From Candidatus Latescibacterota bacterium (GTDB lineage Bacteria > Latescibacterota > UBA2968 > GCA-2709665), in NCBI GenBank assembly GCA_965203805.1, contig OZ241917.1, forward strand, positions 3,040,001-3,104,000: a DNA stretch of 64,000 bases, written 5' to 3'. A model generated the notes under the pieces. The model ran no database searches. It was not told the origin of the DNA and saw only the letters and a list, made by a program, of their open reading frames with translations. Below are positions 4,872 to 54,989 of this stretch, piece after piece; the first letter of the stretch is position 1; every line of letters starts with the position of its first letter. The position numbers and the translations under genes were made by a program.

Positions 4872-5852
4872 ATGGACAGCGTGCGATGGGGCATCGTGGG
4901 ATGCGGCGATGTGACGGAGGTGAAGAGCGGACCCGGATTTCAGAGTGCGGACGGGTCCGCCCTGGCGGCCGTGATGAGGCGGGACGTGGACAAGGCTGCC
5001 GACTACGCGCGCAGACACGGCGTGCCGCGGTTCTACGGTCAGGCGGACGCGCTGATTGAGGATTCCCAGGTCGACGCCGTGTACGTGGCGACCCCGCCTT
5101 CGTCGCATCTCGACGTGGCCCTGAAGGTGGCGGACGCCGGCAAGCCATGCCTTGTGGAAAAACCCATGGCGATGAATCTCAGCGAATGCGAGCAGATGGT
5201 TGCGGCCTTCCGAGAGACAGGACGGCCGCTTTTTGTGGCCTACTACAGGCGGGCGCTGCCTCGATTCCTGCGCGTACGGGAGTTGCTACGGGATGGTGCG
5301 GTCGGCGACCTGAGTTCGGTACATATTACACACTACGATCCGCTCGCGCGGGGCGACGAGGCGAATGGCTGGCGATTCAGGCCGGAGATTTCGGGCGGGG
5401 GGCTGTTTATGGATTTGGGGTCTCACGGCCTGGACCTGCTGGATTTTCTCGTGAGTCCCATCAGGCAGGAATGGGGATGCTCTGCAAACACGGGCGGCAC
5501 GTACGAGGCCGAGGACGTGGTCGCGGCAGGCTTTGAGTTCGAATCGGGGATTGTCGGAACGGGCATCTGGAATTTCAACGCGGATTATTCGGAAGACCGA
5601 ATCACGTTTACCGGATCCGACGGGGAGGTGCAATGTCCGGTTTTTTCGGATTCGGACATCCTGGTCCGGAAAGGCGACGAAACAGCGGCGCTGGAATACA
5701 GGAACCCTCCCCACGTGCATCAGCCGTTGATCCAAACGGTGGTGGATGAACTCCTGGGCAGGGGAAGATGCGAGTCAACCGGCGAGAGTGCCGCCCGGAC
5801 GGCCCGGGTGATGGACAGGTGTTTGAAATCGTACTACGAAGAACGCGATTGA
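4872..5852 (+). CDS. Gfo/Idh/MocA family oxidoreductase
   Basis: WGIVGCG Rossmann start, VEKPMA, GGLFMDLGSH. Confidence 0.9.
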   Translation: MDSVRWGIVGCGDVTEVKSGPGFQSADGSALAAVMRRDVDKAADYARRHGVPRFYGQADALIEDSQVDAVYVATPPSSHLDVALKVADAGKPCLVEKPMAMNLSECEQMVAAFRETGRPLFVAYYRRALPRFLRVRELLRDGAVGDLSSVHITHYDPLARGDEANGWRFRPEISGGGLFMDLGSHGLDLLDFLVSPIRQEWGCSANTGGTYEAEDVVAAGFEFESGIVGTGIWNFNADYSEDRITFTGSDGEVQCPVFSDSDILVRKGDETAALEYRNPPHVHQPLIQTVVDELLGRGRCESTGESAARTARVMDRCLKSYYEERD

Positions 5853-6151
5853 ACGTGCCGGCGTCCTGTCCCGGAAGCAGATTGCCTGGATACGACCGTG
5901 CGAAAGCAGCTTTCAGCCATCAGCGTTCATCAGTCAGCTGGAATCAAAAACGAAAGGCAAACGGCGGAACCCCCACGAATCCGTGAGATTGACCTTTCAG
6001 AAGGACCTTCTGCCCGCCCGGAATGCGATTCCAGTGCGTGTTGTTCCGCCGACAGCCGACCTTGGCAAGGTCCGCGAGAGAGGACAACGCAGTGAGACGG
6101 AATGAATGGGCGGTTGAGCGATACCGCATTGCCGGGACGTGACACGATAGC

Positions 6152-7536: not shown

Positions 7537-8046
7537 TTGCCCTACGAAGACCACAAGAAACAGGCGCAGGGCGCCGTCAATTGCGCCGTACTCACGATCA
7601 GCGACACGAGGACGGAAGCCGACGACAAGAGCGGCAGAATCATCAGAGATCTGCTCGAAACCGGTGGTCACACAACAGGATTTTATCAGGTTGTCCCGGA
7701 CGATCCGGCCCGTATTCGGGAGCTGGTCATCGGAATAACCGGCAGAGGGGATTGCCAGGCGATCCTGACCAGCGGCGGCACGGGCATCGCTGCCCGGGAT
7801 ACCACGTACGAAGCCGTGGTCGGTCTGCTCGAGAAACGGCTGGACGGCTTCGGGGAACTCTTCCGATTCCTGAGCTGGGATGATATCGGCTCCGGCGCCA
7901 TGCTCTCGCGCGCCGTCGCCGGCGTCTACCGCGACACGATGATTTTCTGCATGCCCGGCTCTTCCGGCGCTGTACGCCTCGCCATGGAAAAACTGATCGT
8001 TCCCGAACTCTCGCACCTTGTCTGGGAAATCTGGCGGCAGAAGTAA
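7537..8046 (+). CDS. moaB: Molybdenum cofactor biosynthesis protein MoaB/MogA
   Basis: TISDTR, DKSG, SGGTGIAARDTT, PGSSGA; TTG start after an AGGAGG SD. Confidence 0.9.
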   Translation: MPYEDHKKQAQGAVNCAVLTISDTRTEADDKSGRIIRDLLETGGHTTGFYQVVPDDPARIRELVIGITGRGDCQAILTSGGTGIAARDTTYEAVVGLLEKRLDGFGELFRFLSWDDIGSGAMLSRAVAGVYRDTMIFCMPGSSGAVRLAMEKLIVPELSHLVWEIWRQK

Positions 8047-8237
8047 CCCCGGGGTGCGGCGGATTCCCGGGCATCCTGACAAAGCCCATTGGTCTTCAGG
8101 TCCGCGCTCCGGAACCAAGGGACCGTTACGCCCGGCAGATCACGCCCGCGTTCGGACAGCGTGGGGCAGGTCCTGACTCCAGGGACTCCGTCCGGGACTC
8201 TTTGACTCATACCTCCGGGTTTTGGTCGGGGTACACC

Positions 8238-8639
8238 ATGCCAACCCGTTCGATACACATCCTTGTGTTTTCTTTCGTCCTCAGCTGCGCCGGCCTCGAC
8301 CTCGACCTTCAGGGGCACGACCACAGATATGGACGCGGTTCGAATCTCCTCCCCGGCGCCATTGCCCGCAACCGGAATGAGGGCACCGTCTACGTCGTCT
8401 CCGTGAGCGGTCCCAAACAGTACACACTCACGTCAAAACGGTGGTGGCGGCTGGCCGCCGAGAACACCCGTTTGTATCAGACGATTACCGTGGACGGAGA
8501 CACCCTGCGTTACGAAGCCCGGACCGCCGCGTCCGACCGACCTCGCGGACCGGGGACGGGACTGGCCGAGCACCCAATTCTCGGGAGGGATGATGCCACG
8601 GGTGGGGCTGATCGCGCATCCCGATTTTTCGCGGCATGA
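8238..8639 (+). pseudogene. Remnant of a secreted purple-acid-phosphatase-like metallophosphoesterase (signal peptide fused to C-terminal fragment)
   Basis: Signal-like MPTRSIHILVFSFVLSCAG joined directly to DLDLQGHDHRYGR...GTVYVVSVSGPK...LRYEART; the other metal motifs are absent. Confidence 0.65.
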
Positions 8640-45642: not shown

Positions 45643-48600
45643 ATGGTCTATCAAACCCAGTCGTGGGGTCCGACTGTCGTCCTGTTGATCTGTCTGCTTA
45701 CGGCATCCGGCGCAGCATACGCCCGGAGCGACCTTCAGTTCAAGTTGCTGGGCGTCCATCATACGGGAGTCTACGATGAAGGCGCTGCGGAGATTTCCGC
45801 GTACGACCCGACGACCCATCGCCTGTTCGTTGTCAATGCCGACGCGGCGACAATCGACATCGTCGATATCAGTAAGCCGTCAGACCCGAGACTTTTCAAA
45901 TCAATCGGCGTCTCCGGTTACGGCGCCGGCGTGAACAGCGTCGCGGTCGGGAACGGAATCGTGGCGGTTGCGGTGGAAGCCGAACGCGTTCAGGACCCCG
46001 GCCGGGTCGTTTTCTTCGACGCCGACGGCACCGTTCTCAATAGTGTGCAGGTGGGTGTCCTGCCGGACATGCTCACCTTTTCTCCGGACGGTACGCGGGT
46101 TCTGGTGGCCAACGAAGGCCAGCCCGGGCCGGACTATGCGATCGATCCGGAAGGAAGCGTGAGTATCATTGATCTGTCCGGCGGACCGGGGGCCGCCTCG
46201 GTCACCCACGTTACATTTGCCTCCTTCAACGGACAGGAGTCCCGGCTTCGCAGTCAGGGTGTGCGTATTTTCGGCCCGGGCGCAAACGCCGCCCAGGACC
46301 TGGAACCGGAATACATCGCCGTCGCTCCCGACGGTTCCACCGCGTATGTTGCTTTGCAGGAGAACAACGCCCTGGCTGTCGTGGACGTCGCCGCGGCGTC
46401 CGTATCCGCGATCATACCGCTTGGCTTCAAGGACCACGGCACGCCCGACAACGCGCTCGATGCCAGCAATAGAGATGACGGCATCCGGATTCGAGAGTGG
46501 CCGGTTTTCGGCATGTACCAGCCGGACGCGATCGCCTCGTTTGAATCCGAAGGGCAGACATTTGTCATTTCGGCGAACGAGGGGGACTCGCGGGACTACA
46601 ACGGCTTCAGCGAGGAGGCCCGCGTTGCCGACCTCACGCTGGATGCCGCGGCGTTTCCCAACGCCGCAAGTTTGCAGGATGACGCGCACCTGGGCAGGCT
46701 GAAGACCACCACGAGCCTGGGTGACACCGACGGAGACGGCGACCACGATCGGCTGTACGCCTACGGCGGCCGTTCATTTTCCATCTGGGATCGCAGAGGA
46801 AATCTCGTATTCGACAGTGGAGACGACTTCGAACGCCGTCTGGCGGATCTGGTTCCCGAAGACTTCAACGCCGACAACGATGAGAACGGGTCGTTCGACA
46901 GCCGCAGCGACGACAAGGGCCCCGAACCTGAAGCCGTGGTAACGGGAACCATCGACAACCGCGTCTACGCCTTCATTGGCCTGGAGCGGGTCGGCGGCGT
47001 CATGGTATACGATATCTCCCTGCCTTCCGCGCCCTCGTTCGTCACTTACGTCAACAACAGGGATTTCTCGGTCCGTTTCGGCCCGGATGACGTCTCCCGC
47101 GGCGACCTTGTCCGCACCGGGGATCTGGGCCCCGAAGGTCTCATCTTCATACCCGCCGCGGACAGCCCGACAGGGGAGCACCTGCTGGTCGTCTCCAACG
47201 AGGTGAGCGGATCGGTATCCATCTTTCGAATTGTGACGCCCGCGACGCCGGCCGGCGAGTTTACACTCACCATCCTGCACAACAATGACGGCGAATCCCA
47301 ATTGATTAACGCCGGAGAAGGACTGGAGGACTTTGGCGGCGTGGACCGATTCAAGGCGCTGGTGGATCGGCTTAAGTCCGAGGCGCGGATGGACGGCGGC
47401 GTGATCATGGTCTCGTCGGGGGATAACTTTCTCGCCGGCCCGGAGTTCAACGTCAGCCTCCGGCGCCCCGAATCCGCTCCCTTCTACGACGCCCTGGCGA
47501 TGGATCTGATCGGGTACGATGCCGTATGCATCGGCAACCACGACTTCGACTTCGGACCGGACCTCCTGGCCAGATTCATTTCCGGTTACAGCCTCACCCG
47601 CCCGCCATATCTCAGCGCCAACCTCGACTTCGGTGACGAACCTAAACTGGCCGATCTCGTCGCTTCCGGCCGGATTTCCGGAAGCAGGATCGTCAGAGTC
47701 GACGGCGAACATATCGGCATCGTGGGCGCCACCACACCCGACCTGGCGTTCATCTCCAGTCCACGCAACGTGAGGGTGGACGGCCGGCTTCGGGAAGCCA
47801 TCCAGGCCGAAGTGAACGGGCTGGCGCTACGCGGCGTGAACACCGTCGTTCTGATCAGCCACCTCCAGTCCATCAACAACGATCTGGAACTCGCCCGGCA
47901 ATTGCGAGGCGTGGACGTGGTAATCGCGGGTGGCGGCGACGACATCCTGGCGAATCCCGGCACGCGCCTTATTCCCGGCGACGAAGGCGGGATTTCCGGA
48001 CCGTACCCGATTCTCGAAAAGGACGCTGATGGAAACGACGTCCGCGTTGTCACCACTGCGGGGAATTATCGTTACGTGGGACGGTTCGTTGCCCGATTCA
48101 ATGATGCCGGCGTGATTACGTCAGTCGACCGGAACGCCAGCGGCCCTGTGCGGGTGGCCGGCGGCGATCAGCCGGATGCAGTAGCGCCCGACGCGGAGGT
48201 CCGGTACCGGGTCGTCGCCCCGGTCATCGATGCCCTTGCTTCCCTCGTTTCCAATCCGGTGGGAACGTCGAGCGTCGTGCTCGACGGCGTGAAGCGTAGT
48301 ATTCGGACCCGGGAGACCAACGAAGGCAACCTGGTGGCCGACGCCCTCCGATGGCAAAGCGCACAGCTTGCCTCGTCTTTCGGCGTTCCCGTTCCACAGG
48401 TCGGCATCGTGAACGGAGGGGGAATACGCAACGCCGGCGAGATTCCCGCCGGTGTAATATCCGAACTCACGACCTTCGATATGCTGCCATTTCCCAACTT
48501 CGTCACCATTGTGCCCGCCGTTCCCGCGGCACAATTCAGGGAAATCATGGAGAACGCGGTCTCGAAGGTGGAAGACGCCTCCGGGCGATTCGCCCACATT

Positions 48601-49578
48601 TCGGGCTTCACGATGGTCTGGAATCCCGATGGCGTCGCCCAGGAACTGGATGAGAGCGGAAACGTCACGCGGCGCGGCGGCCGGATCGTGGACATTACCC
48701 TCGACACGGGCGCCGGCATCGTCGAAAACGGAAACGTCGTATCCGGAGCGCCCGACGTTCACGTGGCAACCGTCGACTTTCTCGCCAAGGGCGGCGACCA
48801 GTACCCCTTTCGGGGCGCCCGCTTCACGGGTCTGGGCGTGACCTACCAGCAGGCGCTTGTCAACTTCATCGGGGAAGCCCTCGACGGCCGCATCACGGCG
48901 GCGGCTTATCCGGCAGGGGGACAGGGCCGGATTACCACCGGGCAACCCGCGCCGGCGGACCGCCCGAACGTCCACAGTCGTTCTGTCGTACACGTCTTCC
49001 TTACGGGAGACGGCGGGCCGGTACCGGACGCCCGGGTCGAGTTTTCCCGTTCCATCTCCGGCCGCGCGAGGAACTACCGGTGGATGGGAACGACCGATGC
49101 CGAAGGCCGCACCACAATAGAAATCCAACCTGAAAGCCGTCGGAGTGTCTCGGGCTACTACGCGGTCCGGGCGGTGGATATCAAGGGCAGTACGTTCTCC
49201 AAATGGGAGAGCGTACCCATCAATAGCGGGCGGGAGATCACACTGCTCCTGCCGGTGGGTGGCGTCGCGCGCGTGGAGGAGGAACGACCGCTGGCCGCGA
49301 AGGCCCTGGCGCTTTACCCGAACGCCCCCAACCCATTCAACCCTTCCACCCGGATTGCTTACCGGATCCCGGAGCCCGGGCAGGTCGACCTTACGATTTA
49401 CAACCTGCTGGGCCAGCAGGTCCGGGTTCTGGTAAGGGATCACCGGAGCACGGGCCGGTACGAGGTCCCGTGGGACGGAAGGGACGGGTTCGGGCGTTAC
49501 GTTTCGAGCGGCGTCTATATCTATCGCCTGGCGCATCCGGGCGGCACACTCACCAATCGCATGCTCCTGATCAAGTAG
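45643..49578 (+). CDS. Large secreted phosphatase: choice-of-anchor-I beta-propeller + 5'-nucleotidase + FlgD-Ig/secretion-type C-terminal domain
   Basis: Signal peptide; ANEG, DLEPEYI, SRSDDKGPEPE; SSGDNF, IGNHDFD, NGGGIR; NAPNPFNPST...SSGVYIYRL tail. Confidence 0.85.
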   Translation: MVYQTQSWGPTVVLLICLLTASGAAYARSDLQFKLLGVHHTGVYDEGAAEISAYDPTTHRLFVVNADAATIDIVDISKPSDPRLFKSIGVSGYGAGVNSVAVGNGIVAVAVEAERVQDPGRVVFFDADGTVLNSVQVGVLPDMLTFSPDGTRVLVANEGQPGPDYAIDPEGSVSIIDLSGGPGAASVTHVTFASFNGQESRLRSQGVRIFGPGANAAQDLEPEYIAVAPDGSTAYVALQENNALAVVDVAAASVSAIIPLGFKDHGTPDNALDASNRDDGIRIREWPVFGMYQPDAIASFESEGQTFVISANEGDSRDYNGFSEEARVADLTLDAAAFPNAASLQDDAHLGRLKTTTSLGDTDGDGDHDRLYAYGGRSFSIWDRRGNLVFDSGDDFERRLADLVPEDFNADNDENGSFDSRSDDKGPEPEAVVTGTIDNRVYAFIGLERVGGVMVYDISLPSAPSFVTYVNNRDFSVRFGPDDVSRGDLVRTGDLGPEGLIFIPAADSPTGEHLLVVSNEVSGSVSIFRIVTPATPAGEFTLTILHNNDGESQLINAGEGLEDFGGVDRFKALVDRLKSEARMDGGVIMVSSGDNFLAGPEFNVSLRRPESAPFYDALAMDLIGYDAVCIGNHDFDFGPDLLARFISGYSLTRPPYLSANLDFGDEPKLADLVASGRISGSRIVRVDGEHIGIVGATTPDLAFISSPRNVRVDGRLREAIQAEVNGLALRGVNTVVLISHLQSINNDLELARQLRGVDVVIAGGGDDILANPGTRLIPGDEGGISGPYPILEKDADGNDVRVVTTAGNYRYVGRFVARFNDAGVITSVDRNASGPVRVAGGDQPDAVAPDAEVRYRVVAPVIDALASLVSNPVGTSSVVLDGVKRSIRTRETNEGNLVADALRWQSAQLASSFGVPVPQVGIVNGGGIRNAGEIPAGVISELTTFDMLPFPNFVTIVPAVPAAQFREIMENAVSKVEDASGRFAHISGFTMVWNPDGVAQELDESGNVTRRGGRIVDITLDTGAGIVENGNVVSGAPDVHVATVDFLAKGGDQYPFRGARFTGLGVTYQQALVNFIGEALDGRITAAAYPAGGQGRITTGQPAPADRPNVHSRSVVHVFLTGDGGPVPDARVEFSRSISGRARNYRWMGTTDAEGRTTIEIQPESRRSVSGYYAVRAVDIKGSTFSKWESVPINSGREITLLLPVGGVARVEEERPLAAKALALYPNAPNPFNPSTRIAYRIPEPGQVDLTIYNLLGQQVRVLVRDHRSTGRYEVPWDGRDGFGRYVSSGVYIYRLAHPGGTLTNRMLLIK

Positions 49579-49609
49579 CGATCGGCACAGACCTGGCGCA
49601 CAGTCAAAA

Positions 49610-49641
49610 AACCGGGCGATCGACATACCGATCGCCCGGTT
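49610..49641. terminator. 13-bp stem-loop, likely terminator
   Basis: AACCGGGCGATCG-acatac-CGATCGCCCGGTT after the stop codon, with an A-tract on the 5' side. Confidence 0.65.
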
Positions 49642-49762
49642 CAATCTGCATAGACCACGCGGACCGGTTTGCCACGGGCATCTCCCGGGCTGGATGTGAA
49701 CGCCGGGCGGCCCTCATGCGCACCAGGTCGGCCCGTCGGCTTCTTTTCGGACTTCTGCCCAC

Positions 49763-49791
49763 TTGACGCCGCCAGCCATTTCCGGTATATT
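49763..49791 (+). promoter_or_regulatory. Sigma70 promoter of the RAPP leader / lipoprotein / TBDR operon
   Basis: TTGACG-N17-TATATT. Confidence 0.65.
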
Positions 49792-49836
49792 TTCGTTCTA
49801 TCCAAGTTCGTTTTGCGCTCAACTGGAGACCGCAGG

Positions 49837-50130
49837 ATGTTTTTTTCCTCCGGACGGATTCATCCGGTTGTTCTTTTAGTGGTGGCGATATTCGCGGCCT
49901 ACCTCGCGGTATTCCTGCTTGCCGCCTTTCCCGAACACGATCACGATGAACAATGTCACGATCAACACCAGTGTACTGTCTGCGCATGGTTCAATAGCCT
50001 CACCGTCGTTTTGCCGGGAATACTGGCGGTGCAACTTTGCTTCCTTTATTTCCGCCAGTTGTTTCCCTCGTGTCGCGCACCGCGCATCTCCTTCCTTCTT
50101 CCCGTTGGACGCGCACCTCCAGCGTCCTGA
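49837..50130 (+). CDS. DUF2946/CruR-like small membrane protein with HxH...CxxC and C-terminal RAPP arrest motif
   Basis: 97 aa: hydrophobic N-terminus, EHDHDEQCHDQHQCTVC, ends GRAPPAS; GGAG SD upstream. Confidence 0.8.
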   Translation: MFFSSGRIHPVVLLVVAIFAAYLAVFLLAAFPEHDHDEQCHDQHQCTVCAWFNSLTVVLPGILAVQLCFLYFRQLFPSCRAPRISFLLPVGRAPPAS

Positions 50131-50459
50131 TCCATCCTCACGTGTCGTAAGAGACACGTCCTTCGACGTTACAGGATACATTCCATACTGGTAACTCCGG
50201 CCTGGGACTTTGTGCGAATCCGTACGAGCAGGAAAGCGGGACTTTCCCGCGCCACGGCGGGCCTCAGTCTGCCGGGATCGGCATCGTGCCATCCCCCGCT
50301 CTCACCGCAGGGCGTCTGCTGCAGCAACGGCAGGGCTGCCGCCTGAGGCATCGGCATGGCAACAGTATGTCCTCAGATCGGGGTCAGGTCATGCACGCAG
50401 GCGGCTGCCCATGCGAGGTACGGGGTGCGATAAAACAGCTATTATACAGGAGAAAATCG

Positions 50460-51710
50460 ATGTTCAGCACGCTGAAAACAAAAATACCACATCACTGGAT
50501 CGCAGCGGCGGCTGTCGCGATCATTCTGGCCGGTTGCGGCAAGGAAGAACCCCTGACGACGCAGGAAGAGCACTTTGAAGCCGAAGGCCTCGTGCTCGTC
50601 GACGCCGGCCAGAGGTTCTTCCGCTACTTCCAGGGCAGGATTGACTCGGGAGACGGCCGGGCGGATGCCCTGGAGGTCACTCACGGCGAAGTCACCAGCA
50701 AGTGGAGCATCCGTTTCCTGGACAAAGACGGAAACGAAATGGCGCCTCCCACCGGCGAGGGCTTCAGTTTCACGTGGGAGATTGCGGACACGTCGATCGT
50801 GGAGGTCGTCCAGGACGAGGGGGAAGCGGGCATGTTCGTCTTCGCCCTGCGCGGTCTGGAAGACGGCGAAACCACCATCAAGCTTCAGGTCTCCCACGAA
50901 GGCCACGTGGATTTCACCACGCGGGACATTCCGGTCCACGTGGGAGAAGAGTTCGAGGCGGAAGGGCTTGTCATCATCGAATCCGGCTTTCGTTTCTTCC
51001 GCTATTTCCAGGGCGAGATCGACTCTGAAGACGGTCGGGTGTCGGAACTCACGGCGCCGATCGGAATGACGCCTCACTGGCGCATCAAGTTCCTGGACGA
51101 AAACGGCGAAGAAATAGACCCGCCGGAGGATCCCGAATTCACGTTTGCCTGGACCATTGCCGATCCCGACATCGTCGAAGTCGTCCAGGACGAGGGGGAC
51201 GAGGGTTCGTTCGAATTCCACCTGAACGGCTTGCACGAGGGCGAAACCACCATTGTGCTTAAGGTCGAGCACGACGGACACACGGACTTCAGCACCCAGC
51301 CCATCCCCGTGCACGTGGAATCACAGGAGGGGCAACACGGGGAACCCGTCGGGGTTCGACTGAAAGAAGAAGACAGCGGCGACGTGCTGGTCGAGGCGCC
51401 CGTGGCGGGCGAAGGCACAGCCAACGCCGCGCTCTCGGTCGCTGCCGGAGATTCAACCGACCACATCGCGACCGTCTTCTTTGACGAACACGACGTCGAA
51501 TTCCAGCCCGAAGCGCCCGACCATACGCTGGGCATTGCGGTGGCCGACACCTCGCTGCTCGGTATCGACCCGCCTGTAGCGCCCGAATACTGGGCCTTCA
51601 GACTCATCGGAAAAAAGGCCGGCACGACCGCCATCACGCTTTCCATTCTCCACGACGGAGAGGCCGAGGACGAATTCGCGCCGATTTCCGTGACCATCAC
51701 CGCACCGTAG
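50460..51710 (+). CDS. Acidic lipoprotein with tandem ~125-aa repeats carrying His motifs (putative metal-binding)
   Basis: Lipobox ILAG-C; repeats FEAEGLV..RFFRYFQG..HEGHVDF and ..HDGHTDF plus a degenerate third unit; AGGAG SD. Confidence 0.8.
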   Translation: MFSTLKTKIPHHWIAAAAVAIILAGCGKEEPLTTQEEHFEAEGLVLVDAGQRFFRYFQGRIDSGDGRADALEVTHGEVTSKWSIRFLDKDGNEMAPPTGEGFSFTWEIADTSIVEVVQDEGEAGMFVFALRGLEDGETTIKLQVSHEGHVDFTTRDIPVHVGEEFEAEGLVIIESGFRFFRYFQGEIDSEDGRVSELTAPIGMTPHWRIKFLDENGEEIDPPEDPEFTFAWTIADPDIVEVVQDEGDEGSFEFHLNGLHEGETTIVLKVEHDGHTDFSTQPIPVHVESQEGQHGEPVGVRLKEEDSGDVLVEAPVAGEGTANAALSVAAGDSTDHIATVFFDEHDVEFQPEAPDHTLGIAVADTSLLGIDPPVAPEYWAFRLIGKKAGTTAITLSILHDGEAEDEFAPISVTITAP

Positions 51711-51720
51711 AATGAAACGC

Positions 51721-51749
51721 GGCGGGAGGGTTCTTCTCGCCCTCCCGCC
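51721..51749. terminator. GC-rich hairpin between lipoprotein and TBDR genes
   Basis: GGCGGGAGGG-ttcttctcg-CCCTCCCGCC with no U-tract; could be a stabiliser or attenuator. Confidence 0.45.
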
Positions 51750-51907
51750 CCTCTCCGGGTCAGGACACGTCCGCATAGGCGGGTAACCGACCCGGCGATT
51801 TGGCATTTCGCCGGCATGTCCGCAAATCCGAAGTTCGTCCGCCGCGCAGGCGGTCGCTCACGCGGAATTCGGGGCGAAGTGAGATTTCCATATCCAGGAG
51901 GACATTA

Positions 51908-54154
51908 ATGTCCAGCACGCCGAAAGCGAAAACACCCAGTCCTTGGATAGCCACGGCAGGGGTTCTTGCCGTGTTCCTGTCCGTGGCCTGTCTGGCCGGT
52001 TTCAGCTCGGCCGCTCAGGCGGTGTTGATCGAAGGGTATATCTTCGACAGCGAGTCCGGACTGCCCATCCGGAACGTGAACGTCCAGCCCGCGGATCACG
52101 CCGCGGGCGCCTCTACGGACGAAAAAGGCCGGTTCGTGCTTCACCTGTCTCCCGGTGTCTATCGGCTGTCCTTTACGCACGTCGGCTATCAGGAAATGCG
52201 CCGCGAACTGAACATCTCGGGGACGAAGCATCCCGTTGTCTATCTGGAACTGGCGCGACTGGATCTCAAGCTGGATCCCATGGACGTCGTGGCCAGGCGC
52301 ACCGAAACCCGGTTTGACGAACTCAAGCAGGCCACCCGCGTGCTTTCGGGCGACGAACTCAGGAAGAAATACAGCATGACGTTGGCCGAGACCATGAAAA
52401 ACGAACTCGGCGTGGCCATCCGCAGCATGGGTCCGGCGCCCGCCCGTCCGGTCATCCGCGGCCTCAGCGGGGACCGCGTCCAGATCAACGTCGACGGCAT
52501 CGAGTCCCAGGACCTCTCATCCACGTCCGCGGACCACGCGGTCACGGTGGAGACGTTCAACGCGGAACGCCTGGAAATCATCCGCGGGCCCCGCACGCTG
52601 CTCCACACGGCCACGGCCGGCGGCGGCGTCATCAACGTCGTCAAGCACAAGATTCCGGAAGCGCGACCACGGCGATTTTTCGGGAGCGTCGGCGCCTATG
52701 GAGAGACGGTAAACCGGGGTTATTTCTCGTCCGCCGCCCTCACCGCGCCCCTCGGGCCGCTGGCGCTTTATGCCGAATCCACGTACCGGGATACCAGGGA
52801 CATCCAGACCCCGGTCGGCAGACTCGCCAATACCCCCATCAACACCAGTACCTATACACTCGGCATGTCCTATGCGGGCGACCGGGGCTACATCGGCGGG
52901 TCGTTTGATCAGTTCGAAACTCAGTACGGCATTCCGGGCGGATTCATCGGCGCCCATCCCAACGGCGCGGATCTGGATATCGAGCGGCGGGTCTTCGAAG
53001 GGAAGGCGGTCTATCGGTTCGACGGCCTTGCGATAGACAGGGCCGAGGTGGGATTCGCCAAGGCCTATTACTACCACGTCGAGTATGAGTCAAGCGGCCT
53101 CATCGGCTCCGAGTTCCTCTTTCATGACTACAGTGGAAATCTCAAACTCTACCTGAACACGGATAGCCAGGAGCAGAACACCGTTCTCACGTCCGGTTTT
53201 CAACAACGAGACCTGCAACTGGGCGGTTTTGTCTTCACCCCTCCCACGCGAAAGCAGGACCTCAACGTCGGGTTGTATCACGAGACAATCTACCGCAATA
53301 TCGAACTTCAGGCTGCCGCCCGGTACAACTACGCCGCCTTCGACCCGCGCCTCACCGCGTTCTCCAACACGAGCCTGGACGTAGACCGCACCTTCCACAC
53401 ATGGTCCGCGGCCTTCAGCCCGCTCGTGCCGGTCACCGACCAGCTGACAGCGGGCATCAGCCTCAGTCGTTCCCAGCGCGCTCCCACCATCGAGGAACTC
53501 TACAACGAGGGACCGCACCTGGCCGCATACACCTTTGAGATTGGCAATATAGAACTCAATGCAGAACGCAGTTTCGGCCTGGAGGCCTTCCTCCACTTTC
53601 TGCGACCGGGTTTCGACCTGGTCGTCACGGGTTTCTGGAACGAGTTCGGCAATTACATCGTGCCTCGAAATACGGGAGAAATCTACTATGCAAAACTCCT
53701 CCCCATCTACGCCGCCGACGGTATCGACGCGAGAATGCTGGGCGTGGAAAGCCACATGAAGTGGCGTCCCGATGCGCGCCTCGAGCTGGAAATGAACCTG
53801 AGCCACGTGCGCGGCGAAAACCGGGACGGACGCGTTCCCCTTCCCGAAATACCGCCCCTGAAGTTCGTGGGAAGCGCGACCTATCGGCACCCGTGGTTAA
53901 CCGCGGGAGGAACCGTGGAATGGGCGGCCGGCCAGAAGCGCGTGGATACGTTCGAAGACACCACCGCCGGATATTCCGTCTTCGGCGTTTACATACAGCG
54001 CGACGTCCTCGCGAGTCAGGTGCGGCACAGCGTTATCCTTTCCCTCGAGAATCTTCTCGACACGGAATACCGGAACCACCTGTCGCGCCTCCGTTCCGTG
54101 ATGCCCGAAACCGGCCGAAGCCTGAAATTGCACTACAGGATGTTTTTCTTTTAG
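51908..54154 (+). CDS. TonB-dependent receptor with N-terminal carboxypeptidase-regulatory-like domain (ZnuD-like)
   Basis: ARPVIRGLSGDRV, SADHAV plug motif, IIRGP, RAPTIEELY..GPH, C-terminal F. Confidence 0.9.
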   Translation: MSSTPKAKTPSPWIATAGVLAVFLSVACLAGFSSAAQAVLIEGYIFDSESGLPIRNVNVQPADHAAGASTDEKGRFVLHLSPGVYRLSFTHVGYQEMRRELNISGTKHPVVYLELARLDLKLDPMDVVARRTETRFDELKQATRVLSGDELRKKYSMTLAETMKNELGVAIRSMGPAPARPVIRGLSGDRVQINVDGIESQDLSSTSADHAVTVETFNAERLEIIRGPRTLLHTATAGGGVINVVKHKIPEARPRRFFGSVGAYGETVNRGYFSSAALTAPLGPLALYAESTYRDTRDIQTPVGRLANTPINTSTYTLGMSYAGDRGYIGGSFDQFETQYGIPGGFIGAHPNGADLDIERRVFEGKAVYRFDGLAIDRAEVGFAKAYYYHVEYESSGLIGSEFLFHDYSGNLKLYLNTDSQEQNTVLTSGFQQRDLQLGGFVFTPPTRKQDLNVGLYHETIYRNIELQAAARYNYAAFDPRLTAFSNTSLDVDRTFHTWSAAFSPLVPVTDQLTAGISLSRSQRAPTIEELYNEGPHLAAYTFEIGNIELNAERSFGLEAFLHFLRPGFDLVVTGFWNEFGNYIVPRNTGEIYYAKLLPIYAADGIDARMLGVESHMKWRPDARLELEMNLSHVRGENRDGRVPLPEIPPLKFVGSATYRHPWLTAGGTVEWAAGQKRVDTFEDTTAGYSVFGVYIQRDVLASQVRHSVILSLENLLDTEYRNHLSRLRSVMPETGRSLKLHYRMFFF

Positions 54155-54231
54155 TTTCGAACGGGCAACTGCAGCGATTGCGCGCGCCACTCCCTCCGAT
54201 CATGGCAGAGTGATATTCCCCTGCAACGCAG

Positions 54232-54271
54232 AGCCCCGGATCCAAACGCCGATCCGGGGCTTGCACTTTTT
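54232..54271 (+). terminator. Intrinsic terminator after the TBDR gene
   Basis: AGCCCCGGATC/GATCCGGGGCT stem followed by a T-tract. Confidence 0.65.
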
Positions 54272-54363
54272 GATGCCACGCTTTATCTTTTGGATACTGG
54301 AAATCGTGACAATTACGATTCAGTAGGTACTCACCATTCCATCGAAAACACTCAAGGTACTCT

Positions 54364-54606
54364 ATGGCTGAATCAATGATTGATAAAGATGGCCACCTCA
54401 TGTTGCCCAAGGAAGTCCGGGAGCACCTGCATTTGAATCCAGGAGATCGGCTCAATCTTGTCATTCAAGACAATGGAGACGTGGTCATAAAACCAAATAT
54501 GCGAGACGTTCGAGATTTGAAGGGAATTCTGGCTCCGGCTTCGCAGTCAGTCACCATTGAGGATATGAATCGGGCTATTCGGCAACGAGGCAGCCATACA
54601 CAATGA
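54364..54606 (+). CDS. AbrB/MazE/SpoVT family antitoxin
   Basis: IDKDGHLMLPKEVREHLHLNPGD swapped-hairpin signature. Confidence 0.88.
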   Translation: MAESMIDKDGHLMLPKEVREHLHLNPGDRLNLVIQDNGDVVIKPNMRDVRDLKGILAPASQSVTIEDMNRAIRQRGSHTQ

Positions 54607-54989
54607 TTGAGCTGGATACAAACGTACTGGTTCGTTATCTAACACAAGATGACCCGGAACAGTCGAGAATTGCAACACGAGAAATCGAAACGAGTGACGA
54701 GTCTTTTTTCATCACAGCGACTGGATTGTGCGAGCTCGTTTGGGTCTTGGAAACGGCCTATGGATTTAACCGATCGGCAATTTCGCACACACTGAGCGTA
54801 ATACTTCAAACACGTCAATTCGTATTTGACGATAAATTATCACTGGAAAACGCGCTGGACGAATATCAACATGAAAAGGGTGATTTTTCGGACTACGTAC
54901 TCGGCCACAAGAGCAAACTGGCTGGATGCGACAGGACACTTACGTTCGACCGTGCCTTGAAAAATCACGCGCTTTTTGAATTATTGTGA
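54603..54989 (+). CDS. vapC: PIN-domain (VapC) toxin
   Basis: LDTNVLVR, CELVWVL, DFSD, TFD; ATGA-coupled to the antitoxin; locally low GC. Confidence 0.9.
   Translation: MIELDTNVLVRYLTQDDPEQSRIATREIETSDESFFITATGLCELVWVLETAYGFNRSAISHTLSVILQTRQFVFDDKLSLENALDEYQHEKGDFSDYVLGHKSKLAGCDRTLTFDRALKNHALFELL

Follow-up and report, generated by a model that had tools for sequence, protein, structure and literature searches.

A conserved leader peptide ending near RAPP, probably a metal-sensing nascent-chain switch, ahead of a lipoprotein and a ZnuD-like receptor in Candidatus Latescibacterota

A stretch of 64,000 nucleotides (nt) from a Candidatus Latescibacterota bacterium (contig OZ241917.1, positions 3,040,001 to 3,104,000; hereafter the window) carried a short open reading frame (ORF) of 97 amino acids (aa) that ends close to the tetrapeptide Arg-Ala-Pro-Pro (RAPP) and is followed by genes for a lipoprotein and a TonB-dependent receptor. 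The ORF is a genuine gene, conserved and under protein-level selection. It is probably the leader of a cis-acting, metal-sensing nascent-chain switch of the CruR/CutF type, in which predicted ribosome arrest at RAPP would keep the uptake genes on. This class of switch is already known and widespread, and the locus is less novel than an earlier sequence-only reading of it implied; it differs from the other members in the sensor chemistry, the length of the ruler between sensor and RAPP, the second hydrophobic segment, the tandem deployment, the cargo and the phylum.

A word-indexed search, in which 30 candidates were scored, returned 21 leader homologues of 91-104 aa at 60-99% identity, and a genome scan with the leader alignment located 22 loci, all in genomes labelled Candidatus Latescibacterota or Gemmatimonadota. 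The window and these loci together provided 28 intact leader copies and one frameshifted copy. Residues H34, H36, C46, C49, W51, F52 and R92-A93-P94-P95 were invariant in all 22 aligned leader sequences, and every one of the 28 intact copies had a CxxC motif exactly 42 residues from RAPP. RAPP itself was kept in 28 of 29 copies; the set was gathered by a pattern requiring RAPP, and independent tblastn matches gave only the frameshifted copy (L002) as an exception. In that copy (~5777-6060) the RAPP region is 2 nt shorter and reads RASR before continuing, as the result of either a true frameshift or an assembly error. Across the 28 copies the four RAPP positions used 3, 4, 3 and 4 synonymous codons with zero amino-acid change. 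The conservation of ORF and RAPP at homologous loci, on which the sequence-only reading had made its proposal depend, was thus found, with CxxC kept as well. Identity to the window copy was 50-87% for the leader, 68-86% for the lipoprotein and 64-92% for the receptor in the same loci, and the lower conservation of the leader is consistent with a peptide constrained in its motifs and length only. The sensor loop comprised one to three HDHDQQC-like units, with an invariant HxH before CxxC; the minimal sensor has two His and two Cys, and longer forms add one or two units, reaching up to eight His and two extra Cys.

Within the window leader, a first hydrophobic segment (Kyte-Doolittle 19-residue peak 3.04 at residues 11-29) has Arg7 before it and the acidic loop after it. 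This loop (residues 32-49) has a net charge of -5, contains four His and three Cys and is closed by CTVC at residues 46-49. It leads into the second segment (peak 1.98 at residues 54-72) and a basic tail of net charge +4 that ends RAPP-Ala-Ser-stop, with RAPP at residues 92-95. Topology was judged from hydropathy and charge; a low-confidence structure model (mean predicted local distance difference test score, pLDDT, 62) placed helices at residues 10-30 and 46-79 and left the tail disordered. The promoter, the 97-aa ORF with its export or transmembrane segment and the second hydrophobic stretch were all where the sequence-only reading had put them, and RAPP does lie near the C terminus, though it is not strictly terminal as had been claimed. 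RAPP occurred once in the 49 longest non-overlapping ORFs of the window (19,398 aa), in the leader, and RGPP, RSPP and RAGP were absent from the same ORFs; seven other RAPPs in the six frames of the window fell in short or non-coding frames. In the motif (50113-50118), Ala is encoded by GCA and the first Pro by CCT, which make up ~11% of Ala and ~10% of Pro codons in the window's long ORFs, and CCT stood at the first RAPP Pro codon in 25 of the 28 copies. The CruR motif is said to use frequent codons.

The promoter was the sole match of its quality in 49400-54400, where shuffled sequences yield 1.5, and looks constitutive and near consensus. A CTTGAC / TATA(T/C)T pair was aligned upstream of 22 of the 28 intact copies; the six promoter-less copies were all internal second leaders of operons. 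A by-eye look at the alignment of the 28 upstream regions, from a phylum whose Fur/Zur box is not known, showed no conserved operator-like palindrome.

Gene order was conserved along with the leader. By tblastn, a lipoprotein homologue followed the leader in 21 of the 22 loci, the exception being L004, and a receptor lay downstream in 20, with L011 running off the contig edge and L013 having a reverse-strand ORF after the lipoprotein gene. As the loci were found via the leader, these counts are uninformative on lipoprotein-receptor pairs without one. In six loci the operon contained a second leader immediately ahead of the next gene: L002 and L008 (leader-lipoprotein-leader-lipoprotein-receptor), L009, L012 and L016 (leader-lipoprotein-leader-receptor) and L004 (leader-leader-receptor). 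The position of promoter-less internal leaders before the next gene points to action in cis on the next cistron and not to a protein working in trans. First and second leaders can differ in the number of HDHDQQC-like units, as in L008, with three in the first (5797-6108) and two in the second (8001-8303). Six genomes held two paralogous loci (L002/L013, L004/L015, L012/L019, L008/L017, L009/L020 and L011/L016), one of them with a short single-unit leader of 91-93 aa and the other with longer multi-unit leaders, often in tandem, which suggests two differently tuned systems per genome. In L015 (9997-12182) the receptor homologue was matched in two pieces meeting at about residue 413, and the gene is perhaps split or frameshifted.

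The closest described counterpart is CruR (Bp2923) of Bordetella pertussis, a DUF2946 protein whose gene opens an operon that has a TonB-dependent transporter downstream (PMC9426467). Mutation of its RAPP is reported to abolish downstream expression and mutation of its CXXC to abolish copper control; changes of 1-2 residues in the 45-residue spacing between the two are tolerated but +5 is not, and the signal peptide is dispensable (PMC9426467). Control runs via Rho, with a loading site coarsely mapped to a C>G region inside the ORF plus a 162-nt G+C-rich spacer (PMC9426467). In vitro, CruR arrests when the P and A sites are occupied by the two RAPP Pro codons (PMC12992588). According to the same report, RAPP and RGPP are among the most avoided tetrapeptides of proteomes, RAPP arrests ribosomes in many contexts, and upstream ORFs ending in RAPP or RGPP precede TonB-dependent receptors across Gram-negative bacteria. 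What the sequence-only reading said of CruR and RAPP agrees with these two papers.

The window leader resembles CruR in its small gene at the head of an operon that has a TonB-dependent transporter downstream, in its N-terminal export or anchor segment, in the invariant CxxC, in a RAPP 2-3 residues before the stop, in a fixed spacer of ~45 residues and in a C-rich stretch inside the ORF that is followed by a long G+C-rich intergenic region. It differs in length (97 versus 145 aa), in spacing (42 versus 45), in scoring below the Pfam cut-off, and in having an invariant HxH with one to three HDHDQQC-like units before CxxC and a second hydrophobic segment. The first regulated gene here encodes a lipoprotein with immunoglobulin (Ig)-like domains and not a transporter, there is no PepSY_TM gene, leaders can repeat within an operon, and the phylum is Latescibacterota, not Proteobacteria.

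Against the Pfam model of DUF2946 (PF11162) the window leader scored 7.8 bits (E 7.4; cut-off 23.7), with no match at E<=1, and the alignment ran from sensor loop to RAPP (residues 33-95 to profile positions 51-117 of 117). Across the family, 18 of 22 members matched DUF2946 at E<10, the best at E 0.0072, all under 23.7 bits. A search of 1.84 billion representative sequences with the leader-family profile returned six proteins at E<=0.001, among them two clusters of the family itself (P0007 and P0022) and two repeat proteins that we took as spurious. Protein P0025 (107 aa, E 9e-5) has, after a hydrophobic segment at the N terminus, HDCQIC, a further hydrophobic stretch and then RAPP three residues from its end; it passes the DUF2946 cut-off (25.5 versus 23.7 bits) and has a CxxC-RAPP spacing of 45 residues by manual count. 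Protein P0026 (96 aa) has the same layout with CRVC, RSPP in place of RAPP and a spacing of 42, again by manual count. A search seeded with P0025 for canonical DUF2946 proteins returned P0025 alone, and tblastn against plasmids returned nothing. In the language-model Atlas, used here as a lead only, the leader adjoined unnamed Verrucomicrobiota clusters (~105-113 aa), and the nearest named family was DUF2946, at 0.92. Because P0025 bridges the two with its 25.5 bits and canonical 45 spacing, the leader family appears to be a remote branch of DUF2946 or to lie very close to it. The kinship proposed by the sequence-only reading is therefore detectable at the level of the family, with the window protein itself remaining below threshold; together with the leader-lipoprotein-receptor order, which held across the homologous loci, it lends support to that reading's interpretation of the leader as a probable metal-uptake switch.

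With its 97 aa, its PP at residues 94-95, its hydrophobic N terminus and its spacer of 329 nt, the window leader has every feature in the rule-based filters for CutF-like proteins (a length under 150 aa, PP among the final 15 residues, a signal at the N terminus and a neighbour on the same strand no more than 1,000 nt away). As described (PMC9973294), the set comprises 5,334 proteins in 29 clusters, some of them with His-only motifs beside Ni/Co genes and thought to serve these metals; the frequent TonB-like neighbours and the His- or Cys-rich motifs are further points of likeness. CutF of Rhodobacter capsulatus, itself assigned to DUF2946 (bioRxiv 10.1101/2025.02.05.636593), has the opposite sign and acts by way of a stem-loop that covers the ribosome-binding site of the following gene (PMC9973294): it turns on a detoxifying oxidase with copper by melting a stem-loop across a short spacer, whereas here the cargo serves uptake and the spacer is 329 nt. 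The arrest peptides ApdA and ApdP and other RAPP monitoring substrates share the C-terminal RAPP core and an N-terminal localisation signal, as far as their published descriptions go (PMC7897499, PMC10951233, PMC12992588), but they monitor protein export and sit before sec or yidC genes; the window leader has a metal-ligand motif and is followed by the lipoprotein and receptor genes instead of a Sec or YidC gene. The supplementary text of the CruR and CutF papers, which does not cover the main CutF-like list, held no Latescibacter, Gemmatimonad or Verrucomicrob entry, and a literature search combining Latescibacter with arrest peptide, upstream ORF, DUF2946, CruR or CutF found no paper naming Latescibacter among the matches listed.

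The lipoprotein has a lipobox ending in Cys26 and carries H-x-G-H-x-D-F at H146-F152 and H271-F277, with a degenerate third module. Its model (mean pLDDT 87.1) shows three beta-sandwich domains after a disordered lipidated N terminus. It has 56 homologues at E<=0.001. Shorter relatives of ~280-290 aa appear to have a single such motif-bearing module plus the C-terminal domain; H38, H271, H274 and D276 were invariant in 39 aligned sequences. A fold search of the Protein Data Bank (PDB) with the model found only generic tandem Ig-like arrays (S-layer proteins, invasin, cadherins) and no functional lead, and a profile search against PDB sequences gave one chance-level match. The conserved residues and the genetic linkage suggest that the lipoprotein may be a metal-capturing partner of the receptor. 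The repeated HxGHxDF modules announced by the sequence-only reading are thus present as two motifs and a degenerate third, and the lipoprotein is, as claimed, the first gene after the leader; called unrecognised in that reading, it has many homologues with the precomputed Pfam label PF26181, which our own Pfam scan did not report.

The receptor consists of Plug and barrel domains preceded by an N-terminal CarboxypepD_reg-like domain. The ZnuD-like assignment of the sequence-only reading was upheld, ZnuD being both the top NCBIfam match (NF038289, 199.6 bits, against 134 for haem-receptor and 59.5 for TonB-copper) and the closest solved relative (4rdr, E 1e-36, against ~1e-8 for OprC). At 199.6 bits against a cut-off of 950, the protein falls in a ZnuD-like clade and is not ZnuD itself. 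ZnuD has a published high-affinity zinc site of four ligands; provided that the chain index is the published number plus 14, D209, H210 and H537 align with identical residues at three of them (Asp-99, His-100 and His-499), and the fourth, Glu-340, lies outside the aligned stretches. The extra CarboxypepD_reg-like domain sets the receptor apart from ZnuD of Neisseria, which is under the repressor Zur and not a leader.

No intrinsic terminator was found by pattern scan between the leader and the lipoprotein gene, which are 329 nt apart; the corresponding spacers in other loci were ~310-850 nt. The fold of this spacer region has a minimum free energy (MFE) of -152.4 kcal/mol, with a z of only -1.66 against shuffles. 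The strongest C-rich, G-poor stretch within 49761-51996 lies over the leader's 3' end (50021-50202). Its C>G peak (50060-50137; C 44%, G 19%, 24 YC dimers) takes in RAPP, the stop and the rest of the final ~70 nt of the ORF. Per-copy maxima of C/G were 2.2-3.7, against a 99th percentile of 2.14 for single windows of the 64-kb stretch, and most of the 28 copies had theirs between -66 and +11 relative to the stop. As a sign of a Rho site this maximum is suggestive only. A hairpin with a GTGTC/GACAC core (at least 5 bp) stood at the window hairpin's offset past the leader stop in 15 of the 28 copies, and the others had unrelated C-rich sequence there. The spacer between the lipoprotein and receptor genes is 197 nt.

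A conserved element of ~166 nt sits before nearly every lipoprotein and receptor gene of the leader loci. Using nhmmer, we found 30 copies in the window and 19 of the 22 loci (28 of them in L001-L017, L019 and L020), with 75% mean column identity and no third copy within the window. As it lies between each leader and its gene, the element is a candidate output module of the switch; the window receptor gene has one upstream though no leader stands directly before that gene. Its consensus structure was weak (-5.3 kcal/mol with 28 copies, -13.2 with 19), with double changes in two or three pairs only. RNAalifold with ribosum scoring proposed a larger structure (-65.7); the element shows little covariation, and we claim no RNA structure for it. 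A scan of 49400-52100 against Rfam at E<=1 gave two sub-threshold, chance-level matches (20.5 and 20.1 bits, where the gathering scores are 46 and 39) and no known RNA family. A sigma-54-like GG-N10-GC motif seen by eye was dropped, as it is not kept in a TTGCC subgroup. Nine other loci kept the stretch at 51721-51749, which overlaps the start of the receptor-side copy, at 88-97% identity behind their lipoprotein genes; its hairpin is possibly a partial terminator, or else a signal for processing or stability. The coordinates of all features are collected in the table.

Table. Features of the leader-lipoprotein-receptor locus, in coordinates of the window.
Feature	Coordinates	Strand	Remarks
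Promoter, sigma-70-like	49763-49791	+	TTGACG, 17 nt, TATATT; 10 of 12 positions fit
Leader ribosome-binding site	49825-49829 (GGAGA; GGAGAC to 49830)	+	Column block conserved in upstream alignment
Leader ORF, 97 aa	49837-50130 (ATG 49837, stop 50128-50130)	+	Divergent DUF2946/CruR-like putative arrest peptide
Hydrophobic segment 1 codons (residues 10-31)	49864-49929	+	Likely N-in signal anchor
Acidic His/Cys sensor-loop codons (residues 32-49)	49930-49983	+	Loop ends in CxxC
Hydrophobic segment 2 codons (residues 50-72)	49984-50052	+	From hydropathy
C-rich, G-poor stretch over leader 3' end	50021-50202	+	Candidate Rho-loading site
RAPP codons CGC GCA CCT CCA	50110-50121	+	Predicted arrest site
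Leader-lipoprotein intergenic region, 329 nt	50131-50459	+	Many local hairpins
7-bp hairpin (ACGTGTC / GACACGT)	50140-50159	+	Starts 10 nt past leader stop
~166-nt conserved element, divergent copy	50314-50461	+	nhmmer 73.8 bits, E 5e-22; ends at lipoprotein start codon
Lipoprotein, 416 aa	50460-51710	+	Three tandem Ig-like beta-sandwich domains, conserved His/Asp motifs
GC-rich hairpin, 10 bp, no U-run	51721-51749	+	Directly after lipoprotein stop; overlaps start of ~166-nt element
~166-nt conserved element, full copy	51744-51909	+	nhmmer 154.6 bits; ends at receptor start codon
TonB-dependent receptor, 748 aa	51908-54154	+	ZnuD/haem-receptor clade
Intrinsic terminator closing operon	54231-54262 or 54231-54272	+	12-bp stem, 8 GC pairs, then T-run

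The genes flanking the operon encode UvrA, a secreted nucleotidase-like protein, a MazE/PIN pair and dehydrogenases, none of them metal-related. Directly upstream on the same strand (45643-49578) is a gene for a 1,311-aa secreted protein with choice-of-anchor I, 5'-nucleotidase C-terminal and FlgD-Ig-like C-terminal domains. Directly past the terminator (54364-54989) are genes for a MazE-type antitoxin and a PIN-domain toxin with overlapping stop and start. A 128-aa ORF also lies downstream of the receptor gene in several related loci.

The model that we propose starts from the conserved ORF, its invariant motifs and their spacing, the gene order, the remote link to DUF2946 and the C-rich stretch, and adds to them ribosome arrest, metal sensing, a sign of regulation and an involvement of Rho. 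The leader, lipoprotein and receptor genes would be transcribed as one unit, and the ribosome would arrest on the leader once RAPP's first Pro codon occupies the P site and the nascent chain has 94 residues. With ~30 or more residues filling the tunnel, the 42-residue spacer would bring the HxHx3CxxC loop to the tunnel exit or slightly past it, a geometry shared with CruR; alternatively, the loop would lie in the translocon, behind the N-in anchor. When metal is scarce, arrest would persist and the stalled ribosome would cover the C-rich, G-poor end of the ORF, most likely keeping Rho off, so that transcription and translation extend to the lipoprotein and receptor genes. When metal is available, it would bind the His2Cys2-type loop of the nascent chain, and folding or a pulling force would release the arrest; the ribosome would then terminate and the transcript would be cut short in the long intergenic region. 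We favour arrest that keeps the genes on because this sign, as in CruR-type logic, is physiologically sensible for an importer, and Rho-type attenuation is the downstream step that we favour on the present analysis.

Several observations weigh against this model. The window leader itself stays below the DUF2946 gathering score (7.8 bits), the leader-family profile recovered no canonical DUF2946 protein at E<=0.001 among the 1.84 billion representatives, and the spacing of 42 falls outside the family's reported 45 +/- 1-2. The in vitro release of an arrest peptide by a Cys2His2 domain that folds in a Zn-dependent way, in itself a precedent in favour of the model, is reported to occur only at tethers of ~20-30 residues and not at 45 (PMC4571824). 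The C>G maximum was chosen among ~450 overlapping windows per copy and thus carries a selection effect. Composition at third codon positions, tried as a sign of constraint by a Rho site, was rejected, as G3 is low throughout the leader and the last 25 codons are no stronger. The two facing histidines of ZnuD are common to haem receptors (PMC4557270), and mapping them onto the window receptor assumes the offset of 14. Hydrophobic segment 2 and the basic tail would also suit a stable membrane protein with two helices.

On that alternative, the ORF would encode a stable protein of the inner membrane, with two helices and a periplasmic His/Cys site for metal, that acts in trans as chaperone, sensor or accessory of the uptake system, and RAPP would be conserved for some non-regulatory reason. 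Both hydrophobic segments exceed the usual threshold of 1.6, the charges of +1, -5 and +4 obey the positive-inside rule, the structure model is a helical hairpin, and CutF was itself first proposed as a copper chaperone, as recounted in PMC9426467. The structure model is of low confidence, however (mean pLDDT 62), and a mature protein hardly explains a fixed ruler of 42 residues to CxxC and a RAPP two residues from the stop. RAPP is strongly avoided and reported to arrest ribosomes in many contexts (PMC12992588), and it occurs just once in the 19,398 aa surveyed here; nor would diverged second copies before each cistron be expected of a factor acting in trans. We regard this explanation as distinctly improbable.

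Alternatively, the same arrest leader might be wired translationally, as in CutF, SecM and MifM, with the stalled ribosome remodelling the mRNA and freeing the next ribosome-binding site without Rho, and with the translocating loop perhaps sensing metal in the periplasm. CutF, likewise placed in DUF2946, is described as working in this way (PMC9973294; bioRxiv 10.1101/2025.02.05.636593), and the leader has an N-in anchor together with an acidic loop whose export is expected. The MFE fold of 50095-50475 pairs CUCC of the Pro codons with GGAG of the lipoprotein ribosome-binding site, and a 3-bp UCC/GGA pairing over the ribosome-binding site recurs in the ~166-nt element. Yet the long-range pairing is absent from the centroid, the fold is no better than shuffles (z -1.66), and a complementarity of just 4 bp comes automatically with Pro-Pro codons; we rejected pairing of the RAPP codons with the next ribosome-binding site as unsupported, since it appeared in one MFE fold only. 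The post-stop hairpin occurs in only 15 of 28 copies, and the spacers of 329 nt here and ~310-850 nt elsewhere exceed the short ones to which the CutF authors see stem-loop melting limited. Translational wiring is therefore improbable in our judgement, and Rho-type attenuation downstream of a cis-acting arrest leader is kept as the favoured scheme.

The identity of the metal is a separate question, and the view of the sequence-only reading that zinc, nickel or cobalt is sensed rather than copper is plausible. Zinc is the leading candidate, tentatively held; another ligand (nickel, cobalt or haem) is possible though doubtful. In a copper-specific switch like CruR, the receptor would import copper and the His-rich stretch would only supplement a CxxC copper site. 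The sole tested uptake example of the family is reported to be copper-responsive via CXXC (PMC9426467), and the receptor has weak similarity to OprC (E ~1e-8) and to the TonB-copper model (59.5 bits). The match to ZnuD is far better on both counts (E 1e-36 and 199.6 bits), however, the invariant HxH beside CxxC makes up a His2Cys2 set, and no PCuAC, YcnI, CopC or PepSY gene was found in the operon or its flanks, and we consider copper rather unlikely.

A wider reading would join several of these threads, and as a whole we think it unlikely to hold. In it, the leaders would form a non-copper, probably zinc-reading branch of the nascent-chain metal switches, and expandable HDHDQQC units in a His2Cys2 loop would set their sensitivity. 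One switch per cistron would amount to tandem attenuators within an operon, with the ~166-nt RNA or DNA element as the output module, be it a termination, pause or translation-control site. The lipoprotein would represent a new surface metal-capture family, with a His3Asp site on an Ig-like scaffold, that feeds the ZnuD-like receptor. If this were true, metal piracy by a bipartite system of receptor plus lipoprotein would exist outside host-adapted Proteobacteria.

Ribosome-bound metal-sensing leaders have been tested in two cases only, CruR and CutF, both of them for copper and both in Proteobacteria. The locus described here is a compact, strongly conserved example from an uncultured phylum, with a ligand set like that of a zinc site and a cargo resembling ZnuD; if confirmed, it would extend such control to another metal. 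With one to three sensor units, a fixed ruler of 42 residues and one or two leaders per operon, the family offers a natural series for questions of sensitivity and output. The locus also flags an uncharacterised family of Ig-like lipoproteins with a His site and an unexplained conserved element before the regulated genes. For annotation, it shows that leader ORFs of 91-104 codons scoring under the Pfam threshold are easily missed or labelled as hypothetical.

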